Positions 14,177 to 32,777 of a DNA stretch of 64,000 nucleotides are shown here, in pieces. Location: assembly GCA_022009775.1 (NCBI GenBank), contig CP091723.1, positions 1,029,121 to 1,093,120 on the forward strand. Direction: 5' to 3'. Position 1 is the stretch's first letter. Every line of letters starts with the position of its first letter. The notes beneath the pieces were generated by a model. That model had not been told where the DNA came from and searched no databases. It saw only the letters and a list, made by a program, of their open reading frames with translations. The stretch comes from Christensenella sp. GTDB taxonomy: Bacteria > Bacillota > Clostridia > Christensenellales > CAG-917. The translations under genes were made by a program, and so were the position numbers.

Positions 14177-15017
14177 CGATAAACGCGTCGAAAACGTCGA
14201 AGCGCAGGACAGGAAACAACTTCACAGACAAAGAAAAGCCGCAAGAAGCGAAAAGGCAAAAGTCTTGTTGAAGAAGTTGATAAACGCTTTCAAAAACGCA
14301 TTGTACCCCGTGGATTGCACTTGCGACGTTTGCGGAGAAGAACTCGTCGCAGACACGAGATATCGTCTTTGCTCCGAATGCGTGGAGAAGTTGCCGTTTG
14401 TGGGCGAACACAGGTGTTTGTCTTGCGGTATGCCGCTCAAAGACGAGTCGGACTATTGCAATCGTTGTCAGTACGAGAAATTCGCATTCGTGAAAAATCG
14501 CTCGCCGCTTACGTACGACGGCGAAACGAAGAAATTGATATATTCTCTCAAATTCGGCAAGAAGAAATATATTGCCGAAACGCTCGGCGCGCTTATGGCG
14601 GACGAGTTTTTGAAAAGCGGAATGCAAGCGGACATAATCGTTTTCGTGCCGATGACGGAAAAGGAAGAAAAGAAGCGCGGCTTCAATCAATCCGAACTGC
14701 TTGCTTACGAAGTTGGAGGAAGATTGAACGTTCCCGTTTTGCCCGCACTCGTGAAGATAAAAGATACGTCGGCGCAAAAGGAATTGCACGGAAAAGAAAG
14801 AGCAAAGAACCTTGAAGGTGCGTTTGCTTGTGCGTTCGAGCAGGTGAAAGGCAGAAGATTGCTTATAGTGGACGATATTTTCACCACAGGAGCAACCGCA
14901 AACGAATGCGCCAAAGTTTTGCTGAAAGCGGGCGCAAGAGAAGTGAACGTGCTGACAGGCGCGGTTACCACACTGAAAATTCCTATGGAAGAAGGAAAAA
15001 GAGTTTCAGCCAACTAA
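14166..15017 (+). CDS. comF: ComF family protein (phosphoribosyltransferase-domain competence protein)
   Basis: N-terminal CxxC…CxxC zinc ribbon (CDVCGEEL…CSECVEK), C-terminal PRTase-type motif LLIVDDIFTTGAT. Confidence 0.75.
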   Translation: MSGDDKRVENVEAQDRKQLHRQRKAARSEKAKVLLKKLINAFKNALYPVDCTCDVCGEELVADTRYRLCSECVEKLPFVGEHRCLSCGMPLKDESDYCNRCQYEKFAFVKNRSPLTYDGETKKLIYSLKFGKKKYIAETLGALMADEFLKSGMQADIIVFVPMTEKEEKKRGFNQSELLAYEVGGRLNVPVLPALVKIKDTSAQKELHGKERAKNLEGAFACAFEQVKGRRLLIVDDIFTTGATANECAKVLLKAGAREVNVLTGAVTTLKIPMEEGKRVSAN

Positions 15018-15118
15018 ACTTTGTTGAAATATACACCGATATAGTGTATAATAGAAAATCGAAAATAATCGTGCGCATACGCGCATGCGCCGGAAGGCGA
15101 AATATAGAAAGGTGAAAT

Positions 15119-17785
15119 ATGTCGCTTTTTAATGAAAACAAATTCAAACTTAAGAAAATCGAAAAGATTGCGGCTAAGGTCGAAGCACTTGCCCCGACTT
15201 ATTCCGCTATGGACGACGACACTCTCGTTGCGCAAACCGCAGTGCTTAAAGACAGACTTGCAAACGGCGAAGATCTCGATCATATTCTTCCCGACGCATA
15301 CGCACTCGTGAGAGAAGCGGCGGAAAGAGTGCTCGGGATGCGCCATTTCCACGTGCAGATACTCGGCGGCATTGCGTTGCATCAGGGCCGTATCGCAGAG
15401 ATGGGCACAGGTGAAGGAAAGACGCTCGTTGCAACGCTTCCCGCGTATCTCAACGCACTCGCAGGCAAAGGCGTTCACGTCGTGACTGTCAACGATTATC
15501 TTGCGACTCGTGACGCCGCTTGGATGGGCAAGCTCTACAAGTTTTTGGGGCTCACTGTCGGCGTGGTCGTGCCCGGTATGAGTGCGGAAGATAAACGCAA
15601 GGCATACGAGAGCGATATAACGTATTGCACAAACAACGAACTCGGGTTCGATTTCCTTCGCGACAACATGGTCGTGAGAAAGCAGGACAAGGTGCAACGC
15701 GAACTCAATTTTGCAATCATCGACGAAGTGGACTCCATTCTTATCGACGAAGCGCGTACGCCGCTCATCATTTCGGGCAGGGGCGGAAAGTCGAGCGAAC
15801 TTTATAAGAGCGCGGACAATTTTGCACGTCAATGCAAAGAAGGAGACGATTTCACAATCGACGAAAAAGAAAAGTCGATCATGCTCACCGATCAGGGCGT
15901 CGCAAAAGCGGAAAGATTCTTCCATGTCGTCAATCTTACCGACCTTGAAAACACCGACCTTTATCATCACATTCAGGCGGCTCTCAAAGCGCATTTCATG
16001 ATGAAGCGCGACAAGGACTATATCGTCAGCGACGGAGAAGTGCTTATCGTCGACGAGTTCACGGGACGTATCATGATAGGACGTCGCTACAACGAAGGCT
16101 TGCATCAGGCAATCGAAGCGAAAGAACACGTTGCCATAAGAAGCGAAAACAAGACGCTTGCGACGATTACTTTCCAGAACTTCTTCCGTATGTACAAGAA
16201 ACTCTCGGGTATGACGGGTACGGCAAAGACCGAAGAAGACGAATTTGAAGGCATATATCGTCTCGACGTCGTCACGATTCCGCCGAACAAACCGTCGAGA
16301 AGAGTGGACGAACACGACCAGATTTATACCAAAGTCAGCGGAAAAATCACCGCAATCGTGCAGGATATAATTGACCATCACGCAACGGGACAACCTATTC
16401 TTGTGGGCACGATAAGCGTTGAAAAGAGTGAAGAACTCAGCAATATTCTCAAAAGAAAAGGCATTCCGCACAACGTTCTCAATGCGAAATTTCACAAACA
16501 GGAATCCGAAATCATCGCACAAGCAGGCAGACTCAACGCCGTGACTATCGCAACGAACATGGCAGGTCGCGGAACGGATATTATGTTGGGCGGCAATGCG
16601 GAATTTCAGGCAAAGCAAAAGATGGAAAAGGACGGCTATCCGCTCGAAGTCATCGAACTTGCTTCTTCTCCGCACGCAAGCAACGATCCCGAAATCATCG
16701 CCGCAAAAGAAGTGTACAAACACCATTACGACGCGTTCAAGGCAATTTGCGATCAAGAAAAAGAAAAGGTCGTCGCACTCGGCGGCTTGAGAATAATCGG
16801 CACGGAGCGTCACGAAAGCCGTCGTATCGACAACCAGTTGCGTGGCCGTAGCGGTCGTCAGGGCGATCCGGGCAGCACGGTGTTCTATATCTCAATGGAA
16901 GACGACATCGCGCGTATTTTCGGCGGCGACAGAATGAAAGCCATTGCCGAAACGATGAATCTCGGAGACGACGTTCCTATCTCCAACGGCATAATCACAA
17001 AGCAAATCGAAAAGGCTCAAAGACTTGTCGAAGGCAGAAACTATTCGATAAGAAAACAGGTTTTGAGTTATGACGACGTGATGAACGCACAGCGCGAACT
17101 TATCTACAAAGAACGCGGCAAAGTGCTTGACGGCATGGACGTTCACGAGCAAATTATGGACATGATAGACGACCTTGCAGAAGAAATCATCGGCTACTAT
17201 GCCGACTACAAGACGGACTATCAGACGTGGGATTATCAGGCGTTCAACACTGCGCTCGAGAAGAAAATGCTTCCGCAAGGCACAAATCTTATGACGCCGG
17301 AACTTTGCTCTTGCTACGACGTGTACAAACTCAAAGAAGCGGTGCTCAAGATCGCGAACAAGGACTACAACGACAAGGTGGACGCTCTCGAAAAGGAAGG
17401 CTTTGACTTCAAAGAACTCGAAAGAGTGGTGCTTCTCAAGACCGTCGATTCCAAGTGGATGGACCATATCGACGCAATGGACGCACTCCGTCGCGGTATC
17501 GGACTTCGCGGATACGGACAAAGAGACCCCGTCATTGCGTATCGCCAGGAAGGATGGGATATGTTTGAAGACATGGTGTCGAGAATACACTCCGAGACGG
17601 CGTCCATACTTTTAAAAATTCACGTCGAAAAGAGAGAAGACGGCGGCAAAGCCGAAGTGAGACAAAACATCGCAACCGCGCAAAAGAGCGTTGCTCAAAA
17701 CAAAAAGGTGGGTAGAAACGACCCGTGTCCGTGCGGTAGCGGTCTCAAATATAAGAATTGCTGCGGAAAGAATCAACAAGCATAA
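15119..17785 (+). CDS. secA: preprotein translocase ATPase SecA
   Basis: 888 aa, MGTGEGKTLVATL Walker A, DEVDSILIDEARTPLIISG, C-terminal Zn-binding CPCGSGLKYKNCCG. Confidence 0.95.
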   Translation: MSLFNENKFKLKKIEKIAAKVEALAPTYSAMDDDTLVAQTAVLKDRLANGEDLDHILPDAYALVREAAERVLGMRHFHVQILGGIALHQGRIAEMGTGEGKTLVATLPAYLNALAGKGVHVVTVNDYLATRDAAWMGKLYKFLGLTVGVVVPGMSAEDKRKAYESDITYCTNNELGFDFLRDNMVVRKQDKVQRELNFAIIDEVDSILIDEARTPLIISGRGGKSSELYKSADNFARQCKEGDDFTIDEKEKSIMLTDQGVAKAERFFHVVNLTDLENTDLYHHIQAALKAHFMMKRDKDYIVSDGEVLIVDEFTGRIMIGRRYNEGLHQAIEAKEHVAIRSENKTLATITFQNFFRMYKKLSGMTGTAKTEEDEFEGIYRLDVVTIPPNKPSRRVDEHDQIYTKVSGKITAIVQDIIDHHATGQPILVGTISVEKSEELSNILKRKGIPHNVLNAKFHKQESEIIAQAGRLNAVTIATNMAGRGTDIMLGGNAEFQAKQKMEKDGYPLEVIELASSPHASNDPEIIAAKEVYKHHYDAFKAICDQEKEKVVALGGLRIIGTERHESRRIDNQLRGRSGRQGDPGSTVFYISMEDDIARIFGGDRMKAIAETMNLGDDVPISNGIITKQIEKAQRLVEGRNYSIRKQVLSYDDVMNAQRELIYKERGKVLDGMDVHEQIMDMIDDLAEEIIGYYADYKTDYQTWDYQAFNTALEKKMLPQGTNLMTPELCSCYDVYKLKEAVLKIANKDYNDKVDALEKEGFDFKELERVVLLKTVDSKWMDHIDAMDALRRGIGLRGYGQRDPVIAYRQEGWDMFEDMVSRIHSETASILLKIHVEKREDGGKAEVRQNIATAQKSVAQNKKVGRNDPCPCGSGLKYKNCCGKNQQA

Positions 17786-17864
17786 TCGATAGTTTATCAT
17801 ATCGAAACTTAAAGATAAAACCGCAGTATTGCAAACAAAACGGAATAACGGCAGGCAGGAATAT

Positions 17865-18974
17865 ATGTTAGATTACAACGAACCGAGAAACCAACTTAAA
17901 GAGATGCGCACGGAGATGGTGCGTGCCTACGAATCCATAAATCCCGAGAAAATGAGAGCAAGAATCGCCGAACTCGAGAAAGAACAAAACGCCGAAGGAT
18001 TTTGGAACGATACCGACAACGCAAAGAAAGTGAGTCAGGAGATAAGCCAACTTCAAGGCAAAATCGACAAGTTTGAAAAGATGATTGCACGCATCGACGA
18101 TGCAATCGACACCGTTGATATCATAGAACTCGAAGGCGACGAAAGCGAAGACGAGAAACTTCTCACGACCGTTCACGATTTGGGCGAAGCGGTGGAGAGC
18201 CTTTCGCTTGCAACGCTTCTCAGCGGAAAATACGATGCACTCAACGCAATTCTTACACTCCACGCAGGCGCAGGCGGAACGGAAGCACAAGACTGGTGCT
18301 CCATGCTTTATAGAATGTACACGCGTTATTGCGAACGTACGGGGTGGACTTGCACGGAACTCGATTATCTCGCAGGCGACGAAGCGGGGATTAAGTCGGT
18401 CACTTTCAGAGTGGAAGGCGACAACGCATACGGATATCTCAAGGCGGAAAAGGGCGTTCACAGACTCGTCCGCATTTCTCCGTTCGATGCAAACGCAAGA
18501 AGACATACGTCTTTTGCGTCCCTTGAAGTCATGCCTGAAATCATTGATACGGCGGAAATCGAAATTCGCCCCGAAGATCTTAAAGTCGACACATATCGCT
18601 CGTCGGGCGCCGGAGGACAACACGTCAATAAAACAGAAAGCGCAATCCGTATAACACACATTCCTACGGGAATCATCGTTGCGTGCCAGAACGAAAGAAG
18701 CCAGATTCAGAACCGTGAAGTCGCAATGCAAATGCTCCGCTCGAAACTCATCGAAAAGCGTGAGCGCGAGCGTGAAGAAGAAGCCGCGCAAATCAGCGGT
18801 CAACTCAAAAAAATCGAGTGGGGAAGCCAAATTCGCTCCTACGTGTTCTGTCCCTACACCATGGTCAAAGACCACCGCACAAACTACGAGACGGGCAACG
18901 TGCAAGCAGTTATGGACGGAGATCTTGACGGATTCATCAACGAATATCTCAAACTTTCGTCAATTCAAAAGTAA
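17865..18974 (+). CDS. prfB: peptide chain release factor 2 (no programmed +1 frameshift)
   Basis: GGQHVN motif, SPF-containing RF2 domain. Single continuous frame. ATG at 17865 preferred over the TTG at 17829 used in the ORF track. Confidence 0.9.
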   Translation: MLDYNEPRNQLKEMRTEMVRAYESINPEKMRARIAELEKEQNAEGFWNDTDNAKKVSQEISQLQGKIDKFEKMIARIDDAIDTVDIIELEGDESEDEKLLTTVHDLGEAVESLSLATLLSGKYDALNAILTLHAGAGGTEAQDWCSMLYRMYTRYCERTGWTCTELDYLAGDEAGIKSVTFRVEGDNAYGYLKAEKGVHRLVRISPFDANARRHTSFASLEVMPEIIDTAEIEIRPEDLKVDTYRSSGAGGQHVNKTESAIRITHIPTGIIVACQNERSQIQNREVAMQMLRSKLIEKREREREEEAAQISGQLKKIEWGSQIRSYVFCPYTMVKDHRTNYETGNVQAVMDGDLDGFINEYLKLSSIQK

Positions 18975-18986
18975 AACATAATAAGC

Positions 18987-20024
18987 GTGATTGCTATGAA
19001 TAGTTTGCAAAACAAAGAAAATCTTACGGTGCTTGCCATCGAGTCGAGTTGCGACGAGACCGCTTGCGCAATCGTGAGAAACGGCAGAGAAGTCGTGTCC
19101 AACGTCGTTGCGACGCAGATTGAAATCCACAGAAGATTTGGTGGAGTCGTACCCGAAATCGCAAGCAGAAACCATACGCTTGCAATAGAGAACGTCGTCA
19201 AAGAAGCACTTCTTTCCGCAAATATGACAAAGGACGATATCGACGCCGTTGCCGTCACGTACGGAGCGGGGTTGCTCGGCGCATTGCTCGTGGGAGTGAA
19301 CTTTGCGAAAGCACTCGCTTATGCGTGGAAAAAGCCGTTGTTTGCCGTCTCCCACGTCAAAGGACATATCGCCGCAAACTATATCGATTCGACGCTTGAA
19401 CCGCCGTACCTTTGCTTGCTCGCAAGTGGCGGACATACCGCAATTGTAAAGGTGCTAGATTACGAACATCTTGAACTTATCGCGCAGAGCAGAGACGACG
19501 CATGCGGAGAAGCGTTCGACAAGGTTGCAAGGGTTTTGGGATTGCCGTATCCCGGAGGACCTGAAATTCAGAAACTCGCAAGAGAAGGCAAAGCCGTTTA
19601 CGATATGCCTAAACCGCATTTTTCGGATAGGGACGAATTGTATTTCAGTTACAGCGGTTTGAAAACCTACGTCATCAATCTCGTGCACAATCTCGAACAG
19701 AAAGGGCAGGAGATTCCCAAGGCGGACGTTGCTGCAAGTTTTCAAAAATCTGCCACGGCGCAACTCGTGGATACGCTCAAAATCGCTATAGAGCGCACGG
19801 GAATCAATAAGATTGCAGTTGCCGGCGGCGTCAGCGCAAACGAAGAATTGCGCGCGCGTTTCGACGACCTTGCAAAACACGGGGCGGAAGTGCATTATCC
19901 GAAACTCAAGTATTGCACGGACAATGCGGCTATGATAGGCGCGGCGGCGTGTTTTATGATAAAAAGCGGCATGCAAGAGAGCGATTTGTCTCTCGACGCA
20001 AAAGCAACCGTGCCGCTAAAATAG
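18987..20024 (+). CDS. tsaD: tRNA N6-adenosine threonylcarbamoyltransferase
   Basis: LAIESSCDETACAIV, Kae1/TsaD family signature; 345 aa. Confidence 0.9.
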   Translation: MIAMNSLQNKENLTVLAIESSCDETACAIVRNGREVVSNVVATQIEIHRRFGGVVPEIASRNHTLAIENVVKEALLSANMTKDDIDAVAVTYGAGLLGALLVGVNFAKALAYAWKKPLFAVSHVKGHIAANYIDSTLEPPYLCLLASGGHTAIVKVLDYEHLELIAQSRDDACGEAFDKVARVLGLPYPGGPEIQKLAREGKAVYDMPKPHFSDRDELYFSYSGLKTYVINLVHNLEQKGQEIPKADVAASFQKSATAQLVDTLKIAIERTGINKIAVAGGVSANEELRARFDDLAKHGAEVHYPKLKYCTDNAAMIGAAACFMIKSGMQESDLSLDAKATVPLK

Positions 20025-20149
20025 CGTGAGTAATCGCAAAAAGTGGCTCGAAATTAAAAATATTGCTAAAATTTCGTTGCCAAAATCGCATAATGTGATA
20101 TAATAACCAAGCAAGCGAAAATTAGAGGCTGAAAGGCCGCGAAATTCGT

Positions 20150-20225
20150 GGGGATATGGCTCAGTTGGTAGAGCGTCGCGTTCGCAATGCGAAGGTCAGG
20201 GGTTCGAATCCCCTTATCTCCACCA
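20150..20225 (+). tRNA. tRNA-Ala (anticodon CGC)
   Basis: 76-nt cloverleaf: acceptor GGGGATA/TATCTCC with G3:U70, D-arm GCTC-AGTTGGTA-GAGC, anticodon loop TTCGCAA, T-arm AGGGG-TTCGAAT-CCCCT, encoded CCA. Confidence 0.9.
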
Positions 20226-20260
20226 CAAAAATATCGTACAAATGTACGATATTTTTTTTA
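20226..20260. terminator. hairpin terminator after tRNA-Ala
   Basis: aaaaatatcgtacaaatgtacgatattttttttt: ~13-bp stem plus T-run. Confidence 0.5.
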
Positions 20261-20261
20261 T

Positions 20262-20537
20262 GTGGGATAGGGGATTCTCCACGATTTCATCGTGGTGTTG
20301 CTTTGCAACATGAACCCCTGCGGGCTGATAACAAACGAAGAGAGACGCAAGCGCGTAGCATTTGCGGACATCGAGTGCAGTCTCATAGCCAACAAATCAG
20401 ACACGAAGTGTCCGCGAAAGGCGCAGTGCAACGCACGATTTGTTGAGTGTAGACGCTCAGAGAAGTGAACAAGTTCACTCTCTTCGCTATTACGGAAGCG
20501 TCCAGGTCGCTTCCTACGAATCCCCTTATCTCCACCA
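20262..20537 (+). ncRNA. unclassified structured-RNA-like element, copy 1 (tRNA-acceptor-like closing helix plus ACCA tail)
   Basis: 213-bp core 20312-20524 is 98.6% identical to 30907-31119. The 5' GGGATAGGGGATT (20264-20276) pairs with AATCCCC-t-TATC-t-CC (20519-20533), followed by ACCA. Internal hairpins; terminator follows. Confidence 0.5.
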
Positions 20538-20540
20538 GTC

Positions 20541-20580
20541 AGAATACAAGTTGAACCCCTCAACTTGTATTCTTTTTTAT
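20541..20580 (+). terminator. rho-independent terminator following element copy 1
   Basis: agaatacaagttg / caacttgtattct 13-bp stem, loop aacccct, then tttttat. Confidence 0.6.
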
Positions 20581-20686
20581 GCTTTTTGGGAAAATTAAAG
20601 TTTCACGATGCAATAAAAAGGCTCGTTGACAAATATGCCTGTAATTTTGTCGTAACAAGAAATAGTCGTTGAATTTGAGTATAATA

Positions 20687-20712
20687 AAAGCCCTGACAAT
20701 CGTCAGGACTCT
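20687..20712 (-). terminator. terminator for araC-type regulator (minus strand)
   Basis: rc reads agtcctgac-gatt-gtcagggct followed by tttatta. Confidence 0.4.
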
Positions 20713-20794
20713 TTGTTATCGGGCTTGTAAATCGTATCTCGATTCTGTCATTATATAGTATTATTTGATCAACCAAATAGTTTATTATAAGGTT

Positions 20795-21660
20795 TTAGAT
20801 GGCTTTCATAAGGTGGAAATATTGCTTTGGAGTCAGGTCAAATTCCTTTTTGAAGGCGCGGAAAAAGTGGGTGTAGTCAGAGAATCCACAGCGCACGTAA
20901 ACGTCAGTTATGGACAGACCTTGCTCAATCAATTCCTTGGACATAAGCAGGCGTTTTTTCAGGATATAACTGTGGGGTGAAACGCCGGTTTCTTCCTTGA
21001 AAAGGTGGGCAAAATAATACTTGTTGGTATACAGTGCGTTTGATATGTCGTCAAGGGTGATTGGCTCGGTTAGATGCTCGGAAATATACTCGATTGCACG
21101 GGATATAATCTCGGATTGTTCCGCCTGTTTTGCTTGCCTGTTTTTAAGATAATGAGCACCTAAAAGGGTGAGGGCGGTGATGACGTGATTTTCTGCAGTC
21201 AAGTCCGCGCCAAAAGAGTTGGAGTTTTCATTTTCGATGACTGCAATAAGCTCGGTCACAAGTTTGTCAGAAAGAGCGGAGTTTCTCACAAGATAAGCAC
21301 CCTTTTCCTTTGCCTTTTGAAAGCAGGTGGCAAGGTCGGTTGAGGGGGGAGGAAAGACGCTTGACGTAGGCAGGATTTATCCACAGCACGATGCGGTCAT
21401 AGGACTTGCTTCCGTCCTTGACGTTGGGTTGGTGCAGATAGTTTGGGGGGGATGAGCAAAACGTCCCCCGCTTGCAAACGATATAGGCCGTCCTCAACGA
21501 TATAATCAACTGCCCCCCCGATGAAGCAGTATACCTCATAAAAATCGTGGGAGTGCATCTCAACGGTTTTGAAATACTTATCACGGTAAAGATTTACTTC
21601 GAAATCTTTCTTTGACATAAGCTGTGAAGATTGCCATTTTGTGGTGATATTTTCTCTCAT
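20795..21660 (-). CDS. AraC-family transcriptional regulator (cupin N-domain plus HTH), interrupted by at least 2 frameshifts at G7/C7 homopolymers
   Basis: Three ORF fragments in different frames: 21660-21397 cupin-like (HSHDFYEVY…AGDVLLIPP), 21584-21267 continuation (NYLHQPN…), 21289-20795 C-terminal AraC HTH (…YTHFFRAFKKEFDLTPKQY). Frame breaks coincide with G7 21344-21350, G7 21445-21451, C7 21513-21519. Confidence 0.7.
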
Positions 21661-21846
21661 AATTCAATTTTAATCCAATACAGCAAGATTTGCAAGTTAT
21701 TTCGCAATTTTGTCAATTTACTGACAAAAAATGCAGTAGTATAATACAACTATAAAGTGAATATTATCTCATCCATGCATACGCCGTTGTGGTTGCAAAA
21801 CGACCACAACGCTGCAAAAGACGCAACCTAAAAAAGGAAGAAAAAA

Positions 21847-23232
21847 ATGTTTTTTGACAATAAAGTTTTTCTTGAAAACGACAAAGCAGTGGAACTTTAC
21901 GAATACGCAAAGTCCCTGCCTATTTTTGATTATCACTGCCACCTTGCTCCCCAAGATATCCTTGGCGACAAGGTTTTTTCAAATTTGACGGAATTGTGGC
22001 TCAACGGCGACCACTACAAGTGGCGCATTATGAGAGCATACGGCGTTGACGAGAAGTTCATCACCGGTGACGGCGACGACAAAGAGAAGTTTTTCCGCTT
22101 TGCTGAGGCTTTGCCTCACTTCATCGGCAACCCTGTCTATCACTGGGCACACCTTGAACTGAAAAAGTATTTTGACCTCACTCTCCCTATTTGCCCTAAA
22201 AACGCAGAGGAGATTTGGACTCGCACCCTTGAAAAGATGGCTGACGGCAGTTTTTCTGCAAAGAAACTGATTGAACGTTCAAACGTTTGTGCAGTTGTCA
22301 CCACAGACGACCCCGTTGACGACCTTTCCGCCCATAGAGCAATTGCAGGTGAAGACAACCCCTTCAAGGTGCTTCCTTGTTTTAGAGCAGACCGTCTCAT
22401 CAACATCGACAAGCCTGACTATGCAGACTACGTCAAGAAACTGGGTGAAGTGGCAGGGGTTGAAATCAAAGGATTCAATGAACTTCTTGAAGCAGTTGAA
22501 AGACGCCTTGATTTCTTTGTGGCAAACGGCGCAACCGCAGTGGACATCGGCATGGAAGATTTCCCCTTTGGATACGGAGACGTCAGTAAATGCGACGACA
22601 TCATTAAAGATAGACTTGATGAAAAATTCATTGATGATGAAGACAAGGCGGAATTCCAGTTTACCCTTATGGCACACATTGCAAAGATGCTTCGTGACAG
22701 AGGCATGGTGATGCAACTGCACGTAGGTGTCATCCGCAACTGCAACACAGTCCTTTTTGACAGATGTGGCGTTGACGTGGGCGGTGACAGTGTGGCAAAC
22801 GTCCTCAACGTCAACAATGCAAGGGATTTCCTTGACTACGTTGAGCAAAACGGAGGCCTTCCTAAGACAATAATCTACACTCTGAATCCCACCGCCTATT
22901 ATCCTCTTGCCACCCTCATCGGGGACTTCCAAGGAGGAGAAAGAGGCAAGATTCAACTGGGTGCAGCTTGGTGGTTTATGGACCATCGTGACGGCATAAA
23001 AGAGCAGATGAGAGTGCTGGCTTCAACAGGCGGACTTGGTCTTTTCAACGGTATGCTCACAGACAGCAGAAGCTTCACCTCATACGCTCGACACGACTAT
23101 TTCCGCAGAATATTCTGCTCACTTGTTGGTGAGTGGGTTGAAAGCGGTGAATATCCCGACGACAAGGAAACCCTTGAAAATCTTGTGAAAAACGTTTGCA
23201 TTGACAATGCAAAAAAATATTTTGGAGTTTGA
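21847..23232 (+). CDS. uxaC: glucuronate (uronate) isomerase
   Basis: MFFDNKVFLENDKAVELYEYAKSLPIFDYHCHL…, UxaC N-terminal signature; 461 aa. Confidence 0.9.
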   Translation: MFFDNKVFLENDKAVELYEYAKSLPIFDYHCHLAPQDILGDKVFSNLTELWLNGDHYKWRIMRAYGVDEKFITGDGDDKEKFFRFAEALPHFIGNPVYHWAHLELKKYFDLTLPICPKNAEEIWTRTLEKMADGSFSAKKLIERSNVCAVVTTDDPVDDLSAHRAIAGEDNPFKVLPCFRADRLINIDKPDYADYVKKLGEVAGVEIKGFNELLEAVERRLDFFVANGATAVDIGMEDFPFGYGDVSKCDDIIKDRLDEKFIDDEDKAEFQFTLMAHIAKMLRDRGMVMQLHVGVIRNCNTVLFDRCGVDVGGDSVANVLNVNNARDFLDYVEQNGGLPKTIIYTLNPTAYYPLATLIGDFQGGERGKIQLGAAWWFMDHRDGIKEQMRVLASTGGLGLFNGMLTDSRSFTSYARHDYFRRIFCSLVGEWVESGEYPDDKETLENLVKNVCIDNAKKYFGV

Positions 23233-23233
23233 T

Positions 23234-24285
23234 ATGAAACTGACTTTTAGATGGTATGGTCTTGGTGACAGAATCCCCCTTGACTACATAAGACAAATCC
23301 CCAATATGTACAGTGTTGTGACAGCAGTCTACGACGTGCCCGTAGGCGAAGTGTGGCCCAGAGAAAGCATTGCAACTCTTGTGAGAGAAGCAGAGGCTCA
23401 CGGACTTAAAGCAGAAGTCATCGAGTCCGTTCCCGTCCACGAAGACATCAAACTTGGCCTCCCCACAAGAGACAAGTATATCGCCAACTACTGCGAGAAT
23501 ATTCGTCGTCTTGGTGAAGTGGGTGTCAAGTGCATTTGCTACAACTTCATGCCCGTCTTTGACTGGACAAGAACACAACTGGACAAGTTGGCAGAAGACG
23601 GCTCAACAAGCCTTGTATACTACGGCGAACAACTCGACGGCAAGGACCCTTTGGTTGATGATATGAACTTGCCCGGTTGGGACGCAAGTTATCAAAAAGA
23701 GGACTTAAAACGTCTGTTTGAGCAATATAAAGCCGTGGATAGTGAAAAGTTGTGGGAAAACCTTGGCTACTTCCTTGAACGCATAATCCCCGTTGCAGAG
23801 GAGTGTGGCATCAACATGGCAATCCACCCCGATGATCCACCGTGGGATATCTTTGGCCTGCCTCGTATCATCACCAACGAGAAGAATATCGACAGATTCC
23901 TCTCCCTTGTTGACAGCCCCAATAACGGTCTCACTTTCTGCACGGGCTCACTGGGTGCAGATAAAAACAACGACCTTGTTGCAATGGTCGACAAGTACGC
24001 AAAGATGGGCAGAATCCACTTTATGCACGTGAGAAATATCCGTGTCTTCGACAATGGATTTGAGGAGTGTGCTCACGACCAATCCGCAGGCACGCTTGAC
24101 ATCCTCGGCATTATGAAAGCCCTCTATGACAACAACTTTGACGGCTATCTCCGCCCCGACCACGGCAGAATGATTTGGGGGAAGAAGGCAAGCCCGGATA
24201 CGGTCTTTACGATAGAGCACTGGGCGCAAGTTATATCAACGGCGTATGGGAAACCCTCAACAGATTCAACAAGCAGTCAAAATAA
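23234..24285 (+). CDS. uxuA: mannonate dehydratase (one homopolymer frameshift near 24177-24181)
   Basis: [12 protein letters not shown]…[14 protein letters not shown]…AIHPDDPPW…[11 protein letters not shown] matches the E. coli UxuA blocks. After the G5 run the C-terminus continues in another frame ([32 protein letters not shown]), stop TAA at 24283-24285. ORF-track 23201..24445 is an artefactual fusion. Confidence 0.8.
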
Positions 24286-24319
24286 ATCGAAACAAAACCC
24301 TAAAAGGAAAAGGATAATT

Positions 24320-25163
24320 ATGAAAACACCTATCAGCATCAATTTGAACAATAAAGTTGTGGTCATCACAGGAGCAGGCGGAGTCATCTGCGGATGCCTT
24401 GCAAAGGCCCCTTGCATCAAACGGCGCAAAGGTTGCACTCCTTGACCTCAATCTTGAAGCAGCAGAGGCTGTGGCAAATGAAATAGTCGCAGAAGGCGGT
24501 GTGGCAAAGGCATACAAGACAAACGTCCTTGACAAGGAAAATCTTGAAGCCGTCCGTGAAGAAATTGAAAAGGATTTGGGTGTCACCGACATCCTCATCA
24601 ACGGCGCAGGCGGAAATAACCCTCGTGCCACCACGGACAATGAATACTGCACCTTTGAAAAACAAGTGGACAAGGACTTTTTTGACCTTGACGCAGGCGG
24701 GGTAAGATTTGTCTTTGAACTGAACTTCATCGGCAGTTTCCTCCCCACCCAAGTTTTCTGCAAAGGTATGGTTGGAAGAAAGGGCTGTTCCGTCCTGAAC
24801 ATTTCATCAATGAACGCCTTTACACCTCTCACCAAAATCCCTGCATACAGCGCGGCAAAGGCAGGCATCAGCAACTTTACAGAGTGGCTTGCAGTGCACT
24901 TTGCAAAGGTGGGCATCCGTGTCAACGCAATTGCACCGGGATTTTTTGTGACCAATCAAAACAGAGCATTGCTCTTTGACGCAGAGGGCAACGCAACTCC
25001 CAGAACAAAGAAAATTCTGAACGCAACCCCTATGGAAAGATTTGGCGAAGTTGAGGAACTTGTGGGCGCAACCCTCTTCCTTTTGAGTGAAGAAGCAGCA
25101 GGTTTCATCACTGGTGTAGTCCTTCCCATTGACGGCGGTTTCAGCGCATATTCAGGTGTGTAG
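24320..25163 (+). CDS. SDR-family oxidoreductase, probably D-mannonate/fructuronate reductase-like (one homopolymer frameshift near 24408-24411)
   Basis: ATG 24320 gives MKTPISINLNNKVVVITGAGGVI (Rossmann TGxxGxxG). The frame shifts at the C4 run and continues as LASNGAKVALLDLN… to the stop at 25163. YSAAKAG catalytic motif present. Sits between uxuA and eda. Confidence 0.7.
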
Positions 25164-25171
25164 AGGTGACT

Positions 25172-25785
25172 ATGGACTTTTCATTTTTCAACACAAACAA
25201 AAGTAGTGCCCGTTGTGGTGCTTAACAGCATTGACGAAACAATCCCCAAACTCAGCGCATTGAAGCGTGGGGGGCATCAACGTGGCGGAAATCACTTTCC
25301 GTACATCTTGTGCACCCGATTGCCTTGCACTGGCAGTCAAGACTTTCCCCGATATGCTTGTGGGCGTTGGCACAATCATCAATAGAGAACAATGCGTGAA
25401 GGCCCTTGACATTGGGGCAAAGTTTGTTGTGTCCCCCGGCTTTTCAAAGGAAGTGGCAGAAGAGTGTATCTCCCGTGACGTACCCTATATCCCCGGCGTC
25501 ATCACCCCCACAGAGGTTATGATGGCAAAGGCAGTTGGTCTCAACGTCCTCAAGTTTTTCCCTGCCAGTGACTTTGGCGGAATCAAAACAATGAAAGCAT
25601 TGTCAGCAGCATTTCCTGACGTCCGCTTTGTGCCTACAGGCGGTGTTGGTGAAAGCAATCTCCACGAATTCATTGGACAAAAATTTGTCATTGGCGCAGG
25701 TGGAAGCTGGATGATGAAAGGAACTGAAAGCGACATCGAAACCGCATCAAGACGTGCGGTGGAAATCGCAAAGGAGTATATATGA
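25172..25785 (+). CDS. eda: 2-dehydro-3-deoxyphosphogluconate (KDPG) aldolase (two homopolymer frameshifts near the 5' end)
   Basis: ATG 25172 MDFSFFNTNK, shift at A4 25199-25202 to VVPVVVLNSIDETIPKLSALKRGG, shift at G6 25268-25273 to INVAEITFRT…PGVITPTEVMMA…VKFFPA (Eda/KdgA family). Confidence 0.75.
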
Positions 25786-26801
25786 GAGTAATTACGTTTG
25801 GCGAAATTATGTTGCGTTTTGCCCCTGAGGGCTACAACCGTCTTTTCCAAACCCCTGTCCTCAACGGCACTTTTGGCGGCGGTGAAGCAAACGTTGCAGT
25901 GTCCATTGCAAACTTTGGCGGAGATGCCGCATTTGTGACAAAACTCCCTGAAAACGCAATCGCAGAAGCCTGCATCAGAGAGCTTCGTGGCTTTGGCGTT
26001 GACACAAAATTCATCGCACGTGGCGGTGCAAGAATGGGTGTCTATTATATGGAGAAGGGTGCATCTTGCCGTCCTTCAAACGTCATCTATGACAGAGCGC
26101 ACTCATCAATTTCAACAGCAACCGACAGCGACTTTGACTGGGACAAAATCTTCACCGGAGCAGACTGGTTCCACTTCACAGGCATCACTCCCGCCCTCAG
26201 TGATGAACTTGCCAAAGTGACCTTAAACGCACTTAAAGTTGCAAAAGCAAAGGGATTAAGCGTCAGTTGTGACCTTAACTACCGCAAAAAACTTTGGTCA
26301 AGAGAAAAGGCGAAAGAGGTTATGACAAGCCTTATGCCTTACGTTGACCTGTGCATTTGCAATGAGGAAGACGCAAAGGACGTCTTCGGTATTGAAGCGG
26401 ACGGCACCGACATTGAAAAGGGTGCATTGAGCCGTGAGGGATACGTGGGTGTAGCCAAAAAACTCACTGACAAATTCGGATTTAAGAAAGTGGCAATCAC
26501 TCTCCGCGAAAGTTTTTCAGCCAACGACAACGATTGGTCTGCAATGCTTTACGCTGACGGCGTAGCGCACTTCTCAAACAAATATTCACTGCACATCGTA
26601 GATAGAGTCGGTGGTGGTGACAGCTTTGGTGCAGGGCTCATCTACGGCCTCACCAACGGCTACACCAACCAAGACGCGCTCGAATTTGCAGTGGCAGCAA
26701 GCGCACTGAAACACACCATTGAAGGCGACTTCAATCGTGTCGGTGTCAAGGAAGTACAGTCACTCATCAAAAACGGCGGAAGCGGTAGAGTGCAAAGATA
26801 G
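25782..26801 (+). CDS. kdgK: 2-dehydro-3-deoxygluconokinase (PfkB family)
   Basis: MRVITFGEIMLRFAPEGYNRLFQ…GGEANVAVS, C-terminal GGGDSFGAG PfkB motif. ATGA overlap with eda. Confidence 0.85.
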   Translation: MRVITFGEIMLRFAPEGYNRLFQTPVLNGTFGGGEANVAVSIANFGGDAAFVTKLPENAIAEACIRELRGFGVDTKFIARGGARMGVYYMEKGASCRPSNVIYDRAHSSISTATDSDFDWDKIFTGADWFHFTGITPALSDELAKVTLNALKVAKAKGLSVSCDLNYRKKLWSREKAKEVMTSLMPYVDLCICNEEDAKDVFGIEADGTDIEKGALSREGYVGVAKKLTDKFGFKKVAITLRESFSANDNDWSAMLYADGVAHFSNKYSLHIVDRVGGGDSFGAGLIYGLTNGYTNQDALEFAVAASALKHTIEGDFNRVGVKEVQSLIKNGGSGRVQR

Positions 26802-26823
26802 ATTATAATAAAGGAGAGAATAT

Positions 26824-29088
26824 ATGAGCAGAGTACTTATCAACACAGGATGGCGTTTCTTCAAAAACTGCAACAGCATTGAAGAAATGGACGCAATTAA
26901 AAGCATCAAAGTCAATTTGCCCCACACTTGGAACAACCTTGACGGTCAAGACGGCGGAAACGATTATTTCCGTGGCAAGTGTTTCTACAGAAAGAAAATC
27001 GCTCTCACCAAAAAGGAAAACAAGGTGTATTATCTTGAATTCCGTGGTGTCAACGCAATGAGTGAAGTGTTTGTCAACGGCGTGTCCGTTGCATATCACG
27101 AAGGCGGTTTTTCAACCTTCCGTGCCAACATTACCGACCAACTTGTTGACGGCGAAAACACAATCATCGTGTCCGCAGACAACTCCGCAAACGACAGAGT
27201 CTATCCTCAAATGGCAGACTTCACTTTCTTTGGCGGTATCTACAGAAACGTGTATATCATCGAAGCACCCGCAGTGAGATTTGACCTTGACTATCTGGGC
27301 GGAGAAGGCGTTAAAGTGACACCCATCGTCAACGAAGACGGCAGTGCAACAGTCACGGTGGACAGCTATATCACCGGTGCAACCGACGGCGGGACAGTAA
27401 AGTGCGACATCCTCTTTGATGGCGAAGTGGTGGCAACGGCAGAAGCACCTGCAACTGCAAAAACAACCCTCACCTACACCCTTGAAAATCCCATTCTTTG
27501 GGACGGCGTTGAAAACCCTGCACTCTACACAGCAAAAGTCACTCTCACCACAGACAACGACAGCGATGAAAGAGTTGTCCGCTTTGGTGTCCGCACAATG
27601 AAGGCAGACAAAGACGGCTTCTGGCTCAACGGCAGAAAATATCCCCTCCACGGCGTATCCCGTCACCAAGACAGACAAGATATGGGTTGGGCAATCACCG
27701 AAAAGGAACACAAGGAAGACATCGACCTCATCAAAGAACTGGGCGCAAACACAATCCGTCTTGCACACTATCAACACGACCAATACTTCTATGACCTCTG
27801 CGACGAATACGGTATGGTGGTCTGGGCAGAAATCCCCTACATTTCATCACATCTTGCCAACGGCGATGAAAACGCAGTGAGCCAAATGAAGGAACTCATC
27901 ACACAAAACTACAACCACGCATCAATCTTCTGTTGGGGACTGAGCAATGAAATCACCATCACCGGTGAAAGTGAAGAGATGATGGCACTCCACCACAGAC
28001 TCAACGACCTTTGCCACGATATGGACAAAACTCGTCCCACAACCATGGCAAACGTGACAATGCTTGACATAACATCTCCCATCATCGACCTCCCCGACAT
28101 CATGTCATACAACCACTATTTCGGCTGGTATATGGGCGACGTCAACGGCAACGCAGAATGGCTTGACGACTTTAGAGCAGCACGCCCCGACAGAACAATC
28201 GGCATCAGCGAATACGGCTGTGAAGCAATCCTCACTTGGCACAACTCAGACCCCAAGCAAGGTGACTACAGTGAAGAATATCAAGCATATTATCACGAAA
28301 ACCTCCTCCGCATTTTTGCAGAACGTCCTTACCTCTGGGCAACCCACGTTTGGAATATGTTTGACTTCGGCGTTGACGGCAGAAACGAAGGCGGTGTTGC
28401 AGGACGCAACAACAAGGGCCTCGTCACTTACGATAGAAAGATAAAGAAGGACAGCTTCTACATCTACAAAGCATACTGGACCACCGATCCTTTCGTCCAC
28501 ATCACCTCAAAGAGATATTACTACCGTGCAGAAAAGACCACCACAGTCAAGGTGTACAGCAACTGCGACAAGGTGACTCTCTACGTCAATGGCAAGGAAT
28601 TTGCAACTCAAGAAGGCAAGTATATCTTCACCTTTGAAGTGCCTCTCAAGATTCTCGGTGCAACCAAGATCAAGGCAGTCAGCGGTGACGTCAGTGATGA
28701 AGCATCAATCAAGTACGTGAGAAAGCCTTATCAAGGATATATCTTGAAGACAGAAGCAAAGGTGGACAACTGGTTTGACAAAAACAATGAATTTGACTTC
28801 AAGTTCCCCGAAGGATATTTCTCAATCAAGGACAAACTTGGTAACATTATGGCAACCGAAGAAGGCGAAGCCCTCATCAATAGTCTTATAGACAGAGTGG
28901 TCAAAATCATGATGTCAGGCCCTGACAGCCAGTCAAAAGGCGAAGTGAAAATCAGCAAGGGTATGATGAAGCTTGCAAGCAGTATGACCATTGAACGTAT
29001 CGCAGGCTTGGCAGGAGACAAAGTGACAGCCGACATGCTCTTTGAAGTCAACGAAATGCTGAACAAAATCAAGAAGCCCCAAAAATAA
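26824..29088 (+). CDS. glycoside hydrolase family 2 enzyme, likely beta-glucuronidase given context
   Basis: GH2 blocks: sugar-binding N domain, NTIRLAHYQHDQYFYDLCDEYGMVVWAEIP, WGLSNEI catalytic region, extra C-terminal ~150 aa; 754 aa. Confidence 0.75.
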   Translation: MSRVLINTGWRFFKNCNSIEEMDAIKSIKVNLPHTWNNLDGQDGGNDYFRGKCFYRKKIALTKKENKVYYLEFRGVNAMSEVFVNGVSVAYHEGGFSTFRANITDQLVDGENTIIVSADNSANDRVYPQMADFTFFGGIYRNVYIIEAPAVRFDLDYLGGEGVKVTPIVNEDGSATVTVDSYITGATDGGTVKCDILFDGEVVATAEAPATAKTTLTYTLENPILWDGVENPALYTAKVTLTTDNDSDERVVRFGVRTMKADKDGFWLNGRKYPLHGVSRHQDRQDMGWAITEKEHKEDIDLIKELGANTIRLAHYQHDQYFYDLCDEYGMVVWAEIPYISSHLANGDENAVSQMKELITQNYNHASIFCWGLSNEITITGESEEMMALHHRLNDLCHDMDKTRPTTMANVTMLDITSPIIDLPDIMSYNHYFGWYMGDVNGNAEWLDDFRAARPDRTIGISEYGCEAILTWHNSDPKQGDYSEEYQAYYHENLLRIFAERPYLWATHVWNMFDFGVDGRNEGGVAGRNNKGLVTYDRKIKKDSFYIYKAYWTTDPFVHITSKRYYYRAEKTTTVKVYSNCDKVTLYVNGKEFATQEGKYIFTFEVPLKILGATKIKAVSGDVSDEASIKYVRKPYQGYILKTEAKVDNWFDKNNEFDFKFPEGYFSIKDKLGNIMATEEGEALINSLIDRVVKIMMSGPDSQSKGEVKISKGMMKLASSMTIERIAGLAGDKVTADMLFEVNEMLNKIKKPQK

Positions 29089-29106
29089 GCAAGGAAGGGA
29101 GATATT

Positions 29107-30813
29107 ATGAAAGAGAAGAAAATCAATACCCCCATTGATAGACCTTTTGGCAATAGAGATAAGATTGGATACATGATGGGCGACTTCGGTTGCAACATGA
29201 GTTTCCAACTTATCAGCAGTTTTTTGATGTTGTTTGTCACCCAAGGTCTTGGACTTACAATGGGACATTGGTCAATCATCGTCATCATTTCAAAGATTTT
29301 TGACGCAATCAACGATCCCATCATCGGCGCGTTGGTTGACGCAAGAAAGCCTGGTAGACGTGGCAAATATATTCCTTGGATTTTCTGTGGCGCCTTTGCA
29401 ATCGCACTTACGACGGTGCTTTTGTTCCTTGACGTCAGAGCACTCTCCTACTGGGGCAGATTTGCATACGTGCTTGTTATGTACTGTGTGTGGTCTGTTG
29501 CATACACCGCTGCAAACGTGCCTTACGGCTCGCTCAACGCAGCCCTCACCGACGATTCCGGTCACAGAGCATCACTTTCATCACTTCGCAGTATTGGCGC
29601 AGGCGTCGCAATGCTTCCTATGATGATCATCGTGCCTAGACTCATTTACGGCGAGGCAGATCCAGTCACAAATATCGAGCCTCTCCTTCCTGAGGTTTTC
29701 GTGTGGGTAGCACTGGCTTGTGGGGTTGCTGCAATCGGCGGATTTATGCTCACTTGCTTCCTTACGAAAGAAAGAAAACAAGTTGAAAAACCCAAAGAAA
29801 AATTCAACTATCTTCAAACGCTCAAAGGCTTTGTCACAAACCGTGCTGCACTCGGTATGTGTCTTGCATCATTCAGCCAACTTGTGTTTGTCATGTCCTA
29901 CGCAACCACTTTGCCTCTCGTGTGTCAACTCTTCTTCGGTGACGCAAAGGCGTCAGGCACGGTCGGCATCGTCATGATGTTGCCTATGATGTTCGTCATC
30001 CCCTTTATGGGCAAACTTACAAGAAAGTTCGGAAAGAAAGAGATTGCAATGTGGCCCAACTTGGTGGCAATCGCCGTGCTTGTGATTATGCTGATCATTC
30101 CTTTCCCCAGAACAAGCGCAGGTATGTGGGCATACGCAGCTTGCCTCGGCGTTGCAATGTTGGCATCAGCTCCCTTGAACCTTGGCACTTGGTCAATGGT
30201 GGCAGACTGTGTTGACGAGCAAGAAGTGAGGACAGCAAAGAAAGACGGCAAAAACCTCTACGCAACCTACCTCACAAAAGAGCAATTCGGCAAGCGTGAC
30301 GAAGCAAGTGTGTACGCAACTTACTCCCTTGCGAGAAAGGCAGCACAAGGGATAGGCTCTGCGCTGGTGGCAGCCCTTGCAGGCTTGGTTGGATTTGACT
30401 CGACAAACGTCCAAGCAACCACTCCTCAAACTTCACAAAACCTGTTGACCCTGTCCATTGTACTTCCTTTGGTTGGTTCAATCCTCATCTTCGTGGCATT
30501 CTTCTGTGTGTACAACCTGAACAAGAAAAAGGTCATCGAGAACACGGAATTCCTCCGCGATAAGAACGCACGTATTGCAATCCAACTTGCAAAGGGAGCA
30601 CAACCAGACGACGGAACGGACGAAGCAGAAGTCATCACTTTTGGCAACGTGATAGAAGAAGTTTCAACTGAAACAGAACCTGCCCCCCGCCCAAGCATAA
30701 CCAAAAATCAATCAACAAAAAACGGACTGATTTTAGTCCGTTTTTTTGTTGTGCCGATGAATATTAATTTTGATTGTTTTGACAAAACGAATGGTTTATT
30801 TTGTCGGTTTTGA
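29107..30813 (+). CDS. MFS transporter, glycoside-pentoside-hexuronide:cation symporter (GPH) family
   Basis: MGDFGCNMSFQLISSFLMLFVTQGLGL…DAINDPIIGALVDAR, a typical MelB/UidB-like N-terminus; 12 predicted TM helices; 568 aa. Confidence 0.8.
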   Translation: MKEKKINTPIDRPFGNRDKIGYMMGDFGCNMSFQLISSFLMLFVTQGLGLTMGHWSIIVIISKIFDAINDPIIGALVDARKPGRRGKYIPWIFCGAFAIALTTVLLFLDVRALSYWGRFAYVLVMYCVWSVAYTAANVPYGSLNAALTDDSGHRASLSSLRSIGAGVAMLPMMIIVPRLIYGEADPVTNIEPLLPEVFVWVALACGVAAIGGFMLTCFLTKERKQVEKPKEKFNYLQTLKGFVTNRAALGMCLASFSQLVFVMSYATTLPLVCQLFFGDAKASGTVGIVMMLPMMFVIPFMGKLTRKFGKKEIAMWPNLVAIAVLVIMLIIPFPRTSAGMWAYAACLGVAMLASAPLNLGTWSMVADCVDEQEVRTAKKDGKNLYATYLTKEQFGKRDEASVYATYSLARKAAQGIGSALVAALAGLVGFDSTNVQATTPQTSQNLLTLSIVLPLVGSILIFVAFFCVYNLNKKKVIENTEFLRDKNARIAIQLAKGAQPDDGTDEAEVITFGNVIEEVSTETEPAPRPSITKNQSTKNGLILVRFFVVPMNINFDCFDKTNGLFCRF

Positions 30814-30850
30814 CATTTAAAATATTGATTAATCAAACAAGTATTTTTGT

Positions 30851-31132
30851 GGGGGAATAAGTGGATTGTGCGATTTTTCAAAAATCGCACCACGGTTTCA
30901 CCGTGCGAACCCCTTCGGGCTGATAACAAACGAAGAGAGACGCAAGCGCGTAGCATTTGCGGACATCGAGTGCAGTCTCATAGCCAACAAATCAGACACG
31001 AAGTGTCCGCGAAAGGCGCAGTGCAACGCACGATTTGTTGAGCGTAGACGCTCAGAGAAGTGAACAGGTTCACTCTCTTCGCTATTACGGAAGCGTCCAG
31101 GTCGCTTCCTACGAATCCCTTTGTTTCCATCA
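30851..31132 (+). ncRNA. unclassified structured-RNA-like element, copy 2
   Basis: Core 30907-31119 differs from copy 1 at 3 of 213 positions. Flanks differ but keep pairing: 5' GGGAATAAG-t-GGATT (30853-30867) with AATCC-c-TTTGTTTCC (31114-31128), then ATCA. 5' hairpins gtgcgatttttcaaaaatcgcac and cacggtttcaccgtg replace the copy-1 hairpins. Confidence 0.5.
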
Positions 31133-31173
31133 CAAAAGTCGTGCTTGCACGGCTTTATATAAAAGGCGGTATA

Positions 31174-31203: not shown

Positions 31204-31258
31204 AATTTTGATGTGGGAGTTCGGGCGATGACCCGAACGAAACTAAAGGAGGAACAAA

Positions 31259-32743: not shown

Positions 32744-32777
32744 CAAAAATGCCGAATTCAAATTCGAACAAAGAAAA

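Follow-up and report, generated by a model that had tools for sequence, protein, structure and literature searches.

An uncatalogued structured module at the 3′ ends of tRNA and tmRNA genes in gut Bacillota, possibly the end of a non-autonomous integrative cassette

Integron attC sites and the attP sites of CTX-type integrative mobile elements exploiting Xer (IMEX) are folded sites without open reading frames (ORFs), whose complementary ends keep their structure while the sequence is free. Repeats of the repetitive extragenic palindrome (REP), bacterial interspersed mosaic element (BIME) and miniature inverted-repeat transposable element (MITE) kinds are small, ORF-less and hairpin-rich, and occur in several copies per genome, mosaic or nested and with deletion derivatives. 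The integrative islands that target transfer RNA (tRNA) and transfer-messenger RNA (tmRNA) genes include the CIMEs, cis-mobilizable elements of streptococcal integrative and conjugative elements. Tycheposon islands grow by successive insertions, with partial tRNAs left between them (bioRxiv 10.1101/2020.12.28.424599). A locus that bears comparison with these systems lies in a stretch of 64,000 nucleotides (nt) from Christensenella sp. (contig CP091723.1, positions 1,029,121 to 1,093,120), referred to below as the window. It holds two plus-strand copies of a folded module of about 280 nt (copy 1, 20264-20537; copy 2, 30853-31132), the first standing behind a tRNA-Ala(CGC) gene. The element is real, structured and uncatalogued, without an Rfam entry, and is best described as the end-module of non-autonomous cassettes that target tRNA and tmRNA genes.

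A module tied to tRNA and tmRNA 3′ ends

Relatives of the module were sought by scanning sequence collections with a gapped pattern taken from its conserved center. Among species genomes, the scan returned a Clostridiales metagenome-assembled genome (98% identical to copy 1) and Phascolarctobacterium succinatutens, while human-gut metagenome contigs yielded 79 loci, referred to here by number (L). Counting the window and three earlier loci, the analyzed set comprises 85 distinct instances. The hosts of these ORF-less units are gut Bacillota, namely Christensenellales-like Clostridia and Phascolarctobacterium. A homologue on the gut contig MT835493, whose phage label is unverified, follows tRNA-Arg(ACG) directly and ends in the 3′ end of that tRNA. 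The core pattern gave no match among 2.9 million viral contigs of IMG/VR, and the module was not found in the plasmids of PLSDB; 32 viral-contig loci obtained with a 16-base pattern were rejected, all being chance matches. Full-text literature searches returned no description of the element.

In 48 of 82 loci a tRNA gene lies upstream of the first module on the same strand, in most cases with 80-130 nt between the tRNA and the central pattern. Nine kinds of tRNA gene are represented (Ala-GGC, Ala-CGC, Arg-ACG, Glu-TTC, Ser-GCT, Ser-TGA, Leu-GAG, Leu-CAG and Lys-CTT). In several other loci the module is preceded by a tmRNA gene, which scores 150 bits against Rfam in L058, and the 3′ end of this L058-type tmRNA also stands ahead of modules in L065, L097, L104 and L038. 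The link between gene and module is exact. In nine distinct tRNA/module combinations, the 3′ end of the tRNA and the 3′ end of the module are identical over precisely 21 nt, from C56 to A76, and at the junction the module reads TAC where the tRNA reads TTC. The junction is therefore constant, between T55 and C56 of the T-loop, and 21 nt are duplicated. In the window, the two perfect copies of this stretch lie at 20205-20225 and 20517-20537. The 21-nt copy, termed the core below, is an att-type direct repeat.

The other end of the module is also matched to its neighbor. In every lineage, the 5′ repeat matches a segment of the local core in reverse complement, as in the Glu (CCTACCGAGGTT), Ser (AACAGGGATTTG), tmRNA (ATGCGGGGATTT), Arg (CACAAGGGATTC) and Leu (CACCGAGACTTGAAC) types. 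Together, 5′ repeat and core form a closing helix, P1, which in most relatives is 9-15 bp long and usually perfect, leaving an overhang of 8-13 nt unpaired. A preliminary description of the window had seen in this helix an acceptor-like stem with an ACCA tail. Such a form does occur in the tRNA-Ala lineages, to which the geometry of the other relatives shows it to be special. The module is not intrinsically a mimic of a tRNA acceptor, as its 3′ end is a 21-nt copy of whichever tRNA or tmRNA stands upstream.

A search of the window with nhmmer matched the module at the two copies and nowhere else. As the preliminary description had stated, 213 nt are shared between them (20312-20524 and 30907-31119) with three differences (at 20320, 20448 and 20472), the last 21 nt of copy 1 equal the 3′ end of tRNA-Ala(CGC) at every position, and the 5′ hairpins and closing helices, with their wobbles and bulges, are swapped for others. 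The copies diverge over the 5′ 60 nt and the final 20 nt. The view that the copies are paralogous RNA genes covarying in place did not hold, since their 5′ parts are 59% identical and the remainder 98.8%, which is the pattern of different end-modules on a near-identical center. Judged by these identities, the two copies form a mosaic in which differing end-modules sit on a homogenized center, and they are direct repeats bounding a 10-kb island.

Units, arrays and strain polymorphism

The module is part of a larger unit, which runs from a tRNA 3′-end copy through a terminator, optional cargo, the 5′ inverted repeat, three hairpins (HA, HB and HC), a central domain, hairpin D, GCTATTACG, in some cases a hairpin E, and TAC into the next tRNA 3′-end copy. 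The window can be read as two such units behind tRNA-Ala(CGC) (20150-20225, plus strand), whose last 21 nt provide the left copy of the core. Unit 1 (20226-20537) is free of cargo. It opens with terminator A, a hairpin and T-run on the plus strand (20227-20260), which travels with the module type and has relatives in L063 and L117. The 5′ inverted repeat GGGATAGGGGATTC follows at 20264-20277 and is complementary to the core apart from two 1-nt gaps. The variable hairpins occupy 20279-20324 (HA 20279-20295, HB 20296-20310, HC about 20315-20324); across lineages their sequence is free and hairpin formation is kept. The conserved central domain (20324-20458) contains the helix GCTGAY/GYGCAGY, the invariant stretches CGAAGAGAGA, GCATTTGCGGAMATCGAG and CATAGC, the covarying helix CAACAAATC/GATTTGTTG, and GCGTAGAC. 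In the 3′ module (20465-20516), the covarying hairpin D (20465-20478) precedes the invariant GCTATTACG (20486-20494) and the optional hairpin E (20494-20514). The final TA (20515-20516) replaces T54-T55 of the tRNA, and the next C (20517, C56) begins the second perfect core (20517-20537), which is both the right end of unit 1 and the limit of the island's high identity.

Unit 2 (20538-31132) bears a glucuronide (gus) operon. Its left end is terminator B (20538-20582, plus strand), whose relatives in other taxa stand ahead of modules that follow tmRNA genes (L038, L058 and L065); in L130 terminator B directly abuts the tRNA. The cargo (20583-30846) encodes an AraC regulator on the minus strand, UxaC, UxuA, an SDR protein, KDPG aldolase, KDG kinase, a GH2 beta-glucuronidase and an MFS transporter, and no recombinase is among its genes. 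Module copy 2 follows on the plus strand (30853-31111). Apart from the three substitutions, its central and 3′ domains equal those of copy 1; its 5′ inverted repeat (GGGAATAAG-t-GGATT) and its HA and HB hairpins are not shared with that copy. It closes with a degenerate core, CGAATCCCTTTGTTTCCATCA (31112-31132, plus strand), which differs from the tRNA end by four transitions and retains its pairing with the 5′ repeat of copy 2 through G-U pairs. This stretch is read as the old, displaced 3′ end of tRNA-Ala. Just past terminator B, at 20583-20630, the 5′ end of a module survives as a degenerate remnant (ATGCTTTTTGGGAAAATTAAAGTTTCACGATG). Truncated 5′ remnants are likewise found after the last unit in L001, L038 and L063, and their recurrence suggests that foreign DNA is often joined within the 5′ hairpin region.

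Terminators are part of the unit architecture, and they travel with the units across hosts. A 3′ end in CCA followed by an intrinsic terminator lies ahead of 57 of the 71 distinct modules. Behind the modules of the window, the terminator that had been proposed for each copy is clear after copy 1 (20541-20573), while copy 2 is followed by a weak hairpin and then TTTATAT. Units made of terminator, module and 21-nt core occur singly or stacked in tandem arrays (L038, L043, L058, L061, L096 and L114). Mini-units, which like the tandem arrays are common, keep the 5′ repeat, the three hairpins and the 3′ part and have lost exactly the conserved central domain, with a junction of GCTGAC to GC that is common to at least five lineages. 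Chimeric modules join an Ala-type 5′ part to a Ser-type 3′ part (L042 and L106).

Long-form modules hold a nested repeat of about 110 nt, which is also found free-standing elsewhere. This structured repeat (GGGGACCCC...GGGG-AAAAGGAGCACACAAGCAAAAGAGTGAGC-hairpin-TTTCAAAAGC..GTGTGCGAC) is present in the long-form modules of L100, L001 and L058, and stands by itself, sometimes in tandem, in L137 (2494-2612) and L138 (2340-2460 and 2515-2625). Its hairpin carries compensatory changes, and it has no Rfam match. Between cores, other loci carry cargo that, judged by eye from motifs, is of defense type, for example an AbiEi/AbiEii-like pair and a helicase-like protein (L071, 9414-12350; L093, 8140-11508; L045, 951-4892).

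Strains differ at the tsaD-tRNA-Ala locus by whole units. The states of this locus were compared among contigs with identical UxaC or TsaD, from strains about 99% identical. In L130, the tRNA abuts terminator B and the island, which closes with the module of copy 2 and a perfect 21-nt core. L124 and L128 show the same state plus exactly one block of terminator A, mini-module and core beside the tRNA, and L125 and the window have the full unit 1 followed by the island. L132 has a single unit in which another terminator is combined with the module of copy 2 and a decayed core. The right-hand module is absent from L122 and L129, and unrelated islands lie downstream of tRNA-Ala in L127 and L131. 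In L056, which is 98% identical to the window, 15016-20328 is joined straight to 30907-36750, leaving one hybrid module, with 10.6 kb missing. Presence and absence are thus bounded exactly by the repeats (L130 against L124, L128, L125 and the window; L056 and L132).

The island has also crossed species. It is 99.6% (L105) and 98.7% (L035) identical to that of the window, in a background where the upstream flank and adjacent core genes reach only 88.9%. These figures show an island that passes from one species to another and in each case arrives at this tRNA, and they indicate a recent transfer of a beta-glucuronidase island among gut Christensenellales-like bacteria. A single unit in the window delivers a beta-glucuronidase/glucuronate operon across species lines, which is relevant to the metabolism of drugs and bile conjugates.

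Other mobile DNA uses the same sites. A different island family occurs at this tRNA-Ala site in L035 (839-2699), L055 (2786-4490), L131 (4730-7600) and L127 (7917-8690), with a recurrent protein of about 207-225 amino acids, defense cargo (GmrSD and a methyltransferase fragment) and a large serine recombinase at its far end; it closes in a degenerate T-arm, ..GTTCAAATYCTTTCCACC(A/G). The module hotspot is also shared by islands that carry an integrase and whose repeat is different and longer. In L077 (4132-5445), a tyrosine integrase gene lies beside about 45 nt of a partial tRNA-Ala(GGC), with a module unit immediately downstream. Elsewhere in the window (62434-62740), roughly the first 20 nt of tRNA-Ser(CGA) (62517-62607) and the motif CGCAACACATAAA are duplicated about 80 nt upstream of the gene, and a terminator (AATAATACGAACCCTGA..GAGTTCGTATT) and GCCGGGCGTTTAATCGCCCGCC lie downstream. 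This left-end signature is that of another island family found after tRNA-Ala in L127 and L131/L134/L135.

Folding, the cassette interpretation and its alternatives

Both copies fold far more stably than expected by composition, at −106.4 kcal/mol (z = −5.4) for copy 1 and −102.7 kcal/mol (z = −4.8) for copy 2, and in neither case was any of 200 dinucleotide shuffles as stable. RNAalifold, run on 18 full elements and on 33 central domains, gave a consistent set of helices. Across the 33 members, the 34 consensus pairs show 98.2% pairing. Compensatory double changes occur at 11 pairs (110 compensated cells), compared with at most 2 such pairs in slid controls, and no shuffle reached the observed covariation score. 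The preliminary description of a structured element is supported in that the fold is conserved, multi-helix and outside any Rfam family, and the result is an alignable family of about 280 nt with strong covariation and no Rfam entry. Among its long-range pairings, the caacaaatc/gatttgttg helix and the gtgaac/gttcac hairpin show compensatory changes throughout the family, while gcggaca/tgtccgc is not conserved. Between lineages, the sequences of the three 5′ hairpins reach a median identity of 55%, and yet these hairpins fold in every one, so that selection acts on folding. The functional form of the module is therefore single-stranded, be it RNA or DNA.

Which strand folds is less evident. Two wobble positions in helix 1 and an invariant G-U hint at the plus strand, as do the 5′ hairpins, with 23 G-T pairs against 8 A-C in few independent events, and plus-strand polarity is weakly favored. 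A strand call from folding energy was dropped, both strands being alike, as was one from mismatch types, in which the G-T excess rests on those few events.

No known RNA family accounts for the fold. Searches with cmscan against Rfam 15, at the gathering score and at E ≤ 10 around each copy, matched only the two tRNAs, a Glu-type relative gave a tRNA match and none to the module, and ARAGORN called no tmRNA at either copy. At E ≤ 10, a partial permuted-tmRNA match of 26 bits lies on the T-arm of the real tRNA. The absence of a tag-peptide frame was also upheld by a three-frame reading by eye of the conserved region in window-type and other lineages, in which stops and peptides differ and indels are not multiples of three. 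A peptide tag or small ORF was rejected accordingly, and the recurrent long ORFs of the minus strand merely reflect DNA conservation.

The module may act in cis, folded as a single strand, as the end of integrative cassettes that are non-autonomous and have the T-loop of tRNA and tmRNA genes as their target, a reading to which we give an even chance. Units would move as circles carrying, in order, module, core, terminator and cargo, and a putative recombinase acting in trans would bring about a site-specific exchange of the circle with a tRNA or tmRNA gene, in its T-loop region, or with the core of another module. Integration would supply the gene with a new 3′ end and terminator and push the old 3′ end rightward. 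The module would be the cis site, working as a folded single strand in which P1, made of 5′ repeat and core, would recreate the T-arm half-site of the target as a duplex; by analogy, this may resemble folded integron attC sites and the attP hairpin of CTX phage. Once a locus has two modules, their central domains, being near-identical, would recombine by homology and so delete or insert the island between them, a step that in this mechanism would explain the L056-type deletion and the chimeras. The family points to an undescribed way of building and exchanging islands at tRNA and tmRNA genes in small-genome gut Bacillota, one that is gene-less, structure-defined and based on cassette-like stacking.

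Several observations weigh against this interpretation. Across about 80 loci, no recombinase consistently near the modules emerged from a clustering of ORFs or from BLAST with the sporadic integrases. The recombinase genes that do occur (a tyrosine integrase in L077; large serine recombinases in L055, L101, L079 and L072) are those of other islands at the same hotspots. The module was not found in the viral and plasmid collections. Homologous exchange anchored on the tRNA gene and the modules, together with deletion between 21-nt repeats, could give rise to all of the polymorphisms. A highly conserved central domain of about 130 nt is unusual in a recombination site, plus and minus strands fold with equally good energy, and the mechanism does not account for the matching of the 5′ repeat to each new tRNA. 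Only the gus island clearly documents cargo placed between terminator and module, and it looks as if captured between two older units. The puzzle is that one conserved body is combined with at least 10 tRNA-specific end pairs and no visible recombinase. Likenesses of TATTAC to a rolling-circle nick site, of GTTC to an IS91 target and of ATAGCC to the R388 nic site were dropped as too weak.

Instead of a cassette end, the module could be the gene of a functional non-coding RNA. Read-through from the strong promoter of the tRNA or tmRNA would produce the transcript, and tRNA-maturation enzymes would process it at its 3′ end. Its job would lie in the cell or in a mobile element, for example in regulation, as a decoy or against phages, and its position at the att core would be incidental. 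We regard this as unlikely, although it has several points in its favor. A multi-helix fold with compensatory changes and invariant unpaired stretches is typical of structured RNAs, and the module always lies on the same strand, just downstream of highly expressed tRNA or tmRNA genes. Helix 1 tolerates G-U at two positions that would be A-C on the opposite strand, the 5′ hairpins show the excess of G-T over A-C, and the core of copy 2 has decayed by transitions only, all of which keep G-U pairing with the 5′ repeat. These wobble events are, however, few when counted independently, and the minus strand folds equally well. Transcription is a further difficulty. A scan for sigma-70 promoters found none between the upstream terminator and the module at either copy. 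The only promoter-like site upstream of copy 1 is that of tRNA-Ala (20077-20104, plus strand; TTGCCA-16-TATAAT with TG), and nearly every module has a good terminator immediately upstream. The frequent truncations, minis without the central domain, chimeras and nested insertions resemble selfish repeats and not a maintained gene, and a 3′ end that varies with the neighboring tRNA has no fixed acceptor identity. No relative is known in Rfam.

Another alternative is a passive repeat between genes, a mosaic of several hairpin motifs comparable to REP/BIME or MITE elements, which only homologous recombination, gene conversion and replication slippage would spread and reshuffle; its tRNA-3′ repeats would be att scars of other, integrase-bearing islands at the same hotspots. 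We consider it less likely still. The same tRNA sites do host unrelated islands with tyrosine or large serine recombinases that leave partial tRNA ends (L077, L055, L035 at 839-2699, L127 and L131). Moreover, the central domain has been lost or duplicated at GAC/C microhomologies, the nested 110-nt repeat of long-form modules is also free-standing, and Ala-type 5′ parts have been joined to Ser-type 3′ parts. Scars of other elements differ in length, though, as in the repeat of about 45 nt in L077, whereas the module keeps a constant T-loop coordinate and an identity of exactly 21 nt at many different tRNAs. A passive repeat would also be hard to reconcile with a 5′ repeat matched to each tRNA and with hairpins that are kept despite free sequence.

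Two further proposals give the central domain an active role in nucleic acid guidance. One, which we hold to be very improbable and which would be a mechanism new in kind, is an ORF-less mobile element with both its specificity and its mobility lodged in nucleic acid, whose 5′ repeat would be a programmable guide to the T-arm and acceptor strand; a central trans-acting RNA (a guide, scaffold or ribozyme) would direct integration at 55/56, minis would be non-autonomous parasites, and the whole would form a cassette platform spreading operons such as gus. The other, with the slimmest chance in our estimate, is a mobile element that works through RNA. Its transcription would start at the tRNA promoter, its 5′ repeat would be directed against the tRNA 3′ region as a guide or in the manner of a primer-binding segment, and its central domain would serve as a trans guide RNA, a ribozyme or the recognition module for a reverse transcriptase (RT) or recombinase encoded elsewhere; the minis would be non-autonomous derivatives. 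The succession of tRNA 3′ end with terminator, complementary segment, body and repeat does parallel that of long terminal repeat (LTR), primer-binding site (PBS), body and LTR, the minis retain both ends and drop only the most conserved domain, and the units are without an ORF and depend on foreign strong promoters. Against this last proposal, an island of 10 kb with a gene on the opposite strand cannot travel via RNA; no RT, DEDD recombinase or other partner lies nearby, no ribozyme family was matched, and a filled and empty pair with just a 21-nt repeat and differing terminators fits site-specific DNA exchange better than complementary DNA (cDNA) integration.

Comparison with described systems

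Some known systems can be set aside quickly. Retron msr-msd, IS110 bridge RNA and omega RNA were rejected because the neighbors of the module are host housekeeping genes or variable cargo and no Rfam match to HEARO or related families was found, and group I and II introns because neither a model match nor a partner gene was present. The module has some likeness to tmRNA (RF00023). Both have a large structured insert closed by a helix with a tRNA-like 3′ strand ending in ACCA, and in the tRNA-Ala lineage a G-U at the third pair can be drawn. The module nevertheless has no T-arm, tag frame, pseudoknot pattern or call by Rfam or ARAGORN, against 150 bits for the real tmRNA in L058, and tmRNA identity was rejected. 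Unlike that of tmRNA, its 3′ end changes with the neighboring tRNA (Arg, Glu, Leu, Ser and others), and tmRNA genes are themselves targets of module units.

With REP/BIME and MITE-type repeats, the module shares its small size, lack of ORFs, wealth of hairpins, multiple copies, mosaic and nested arrangements and deletion derivatives. It differs in its strict association with tRNA and tmRNA 3′ ends, in having one terminal repeat that is a copy of the target, and apparently in lacking a target-site duplication of short, fixed length. Inverted ends are present, but one arm is the target copy, and the duplication is 21 nt at a fixed position. No partner transposase such as RAYT was seen, and no autonomous relative in the loci or in the phage and plasmid sets.

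The module would function in the manner of integron attC sites and the CTX attP. There too, complementary ends fold as a single strand, as P1 does here with 9-15 bp in every lineage, units stack in tandem by the primary site, and after insertion the target contributes whatever lies 3′ of the crossover. The RYYYAAC/GTTRRRY boxes and the intI/attI platform are not found, the module ends being tRNA-derived and the arrays without a flanking integrase gene. Compared with attC, the module is 2-4 times longer and highly conserved in its interior, and its primary site is the tRNA T-loop.

The module units behave like the islands that target tRNA and tmRNA genes, such as tycheposons and CIMEs. In both, insertions lie in the 3′ portion of tRNA or tmRNA genes between direct repeats of partial tRNA, newer insertions push older ones outward to build arrays and islands, the cargo is adaptive (metabolic or defense), and derivatives without an integrase occur. 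No integrase lies inside the window island, and none recurs across the roughly 80 loci. The units described here stand apart in that they can be gene-free and only about 310 nt long, with a conserved, folded module of about 250 nt beside the right-hand repeat. Their repeat is always 21 nt, counted from T-loop position 56, and one type of body serves at least 10 tRNA and tmRNA targets.

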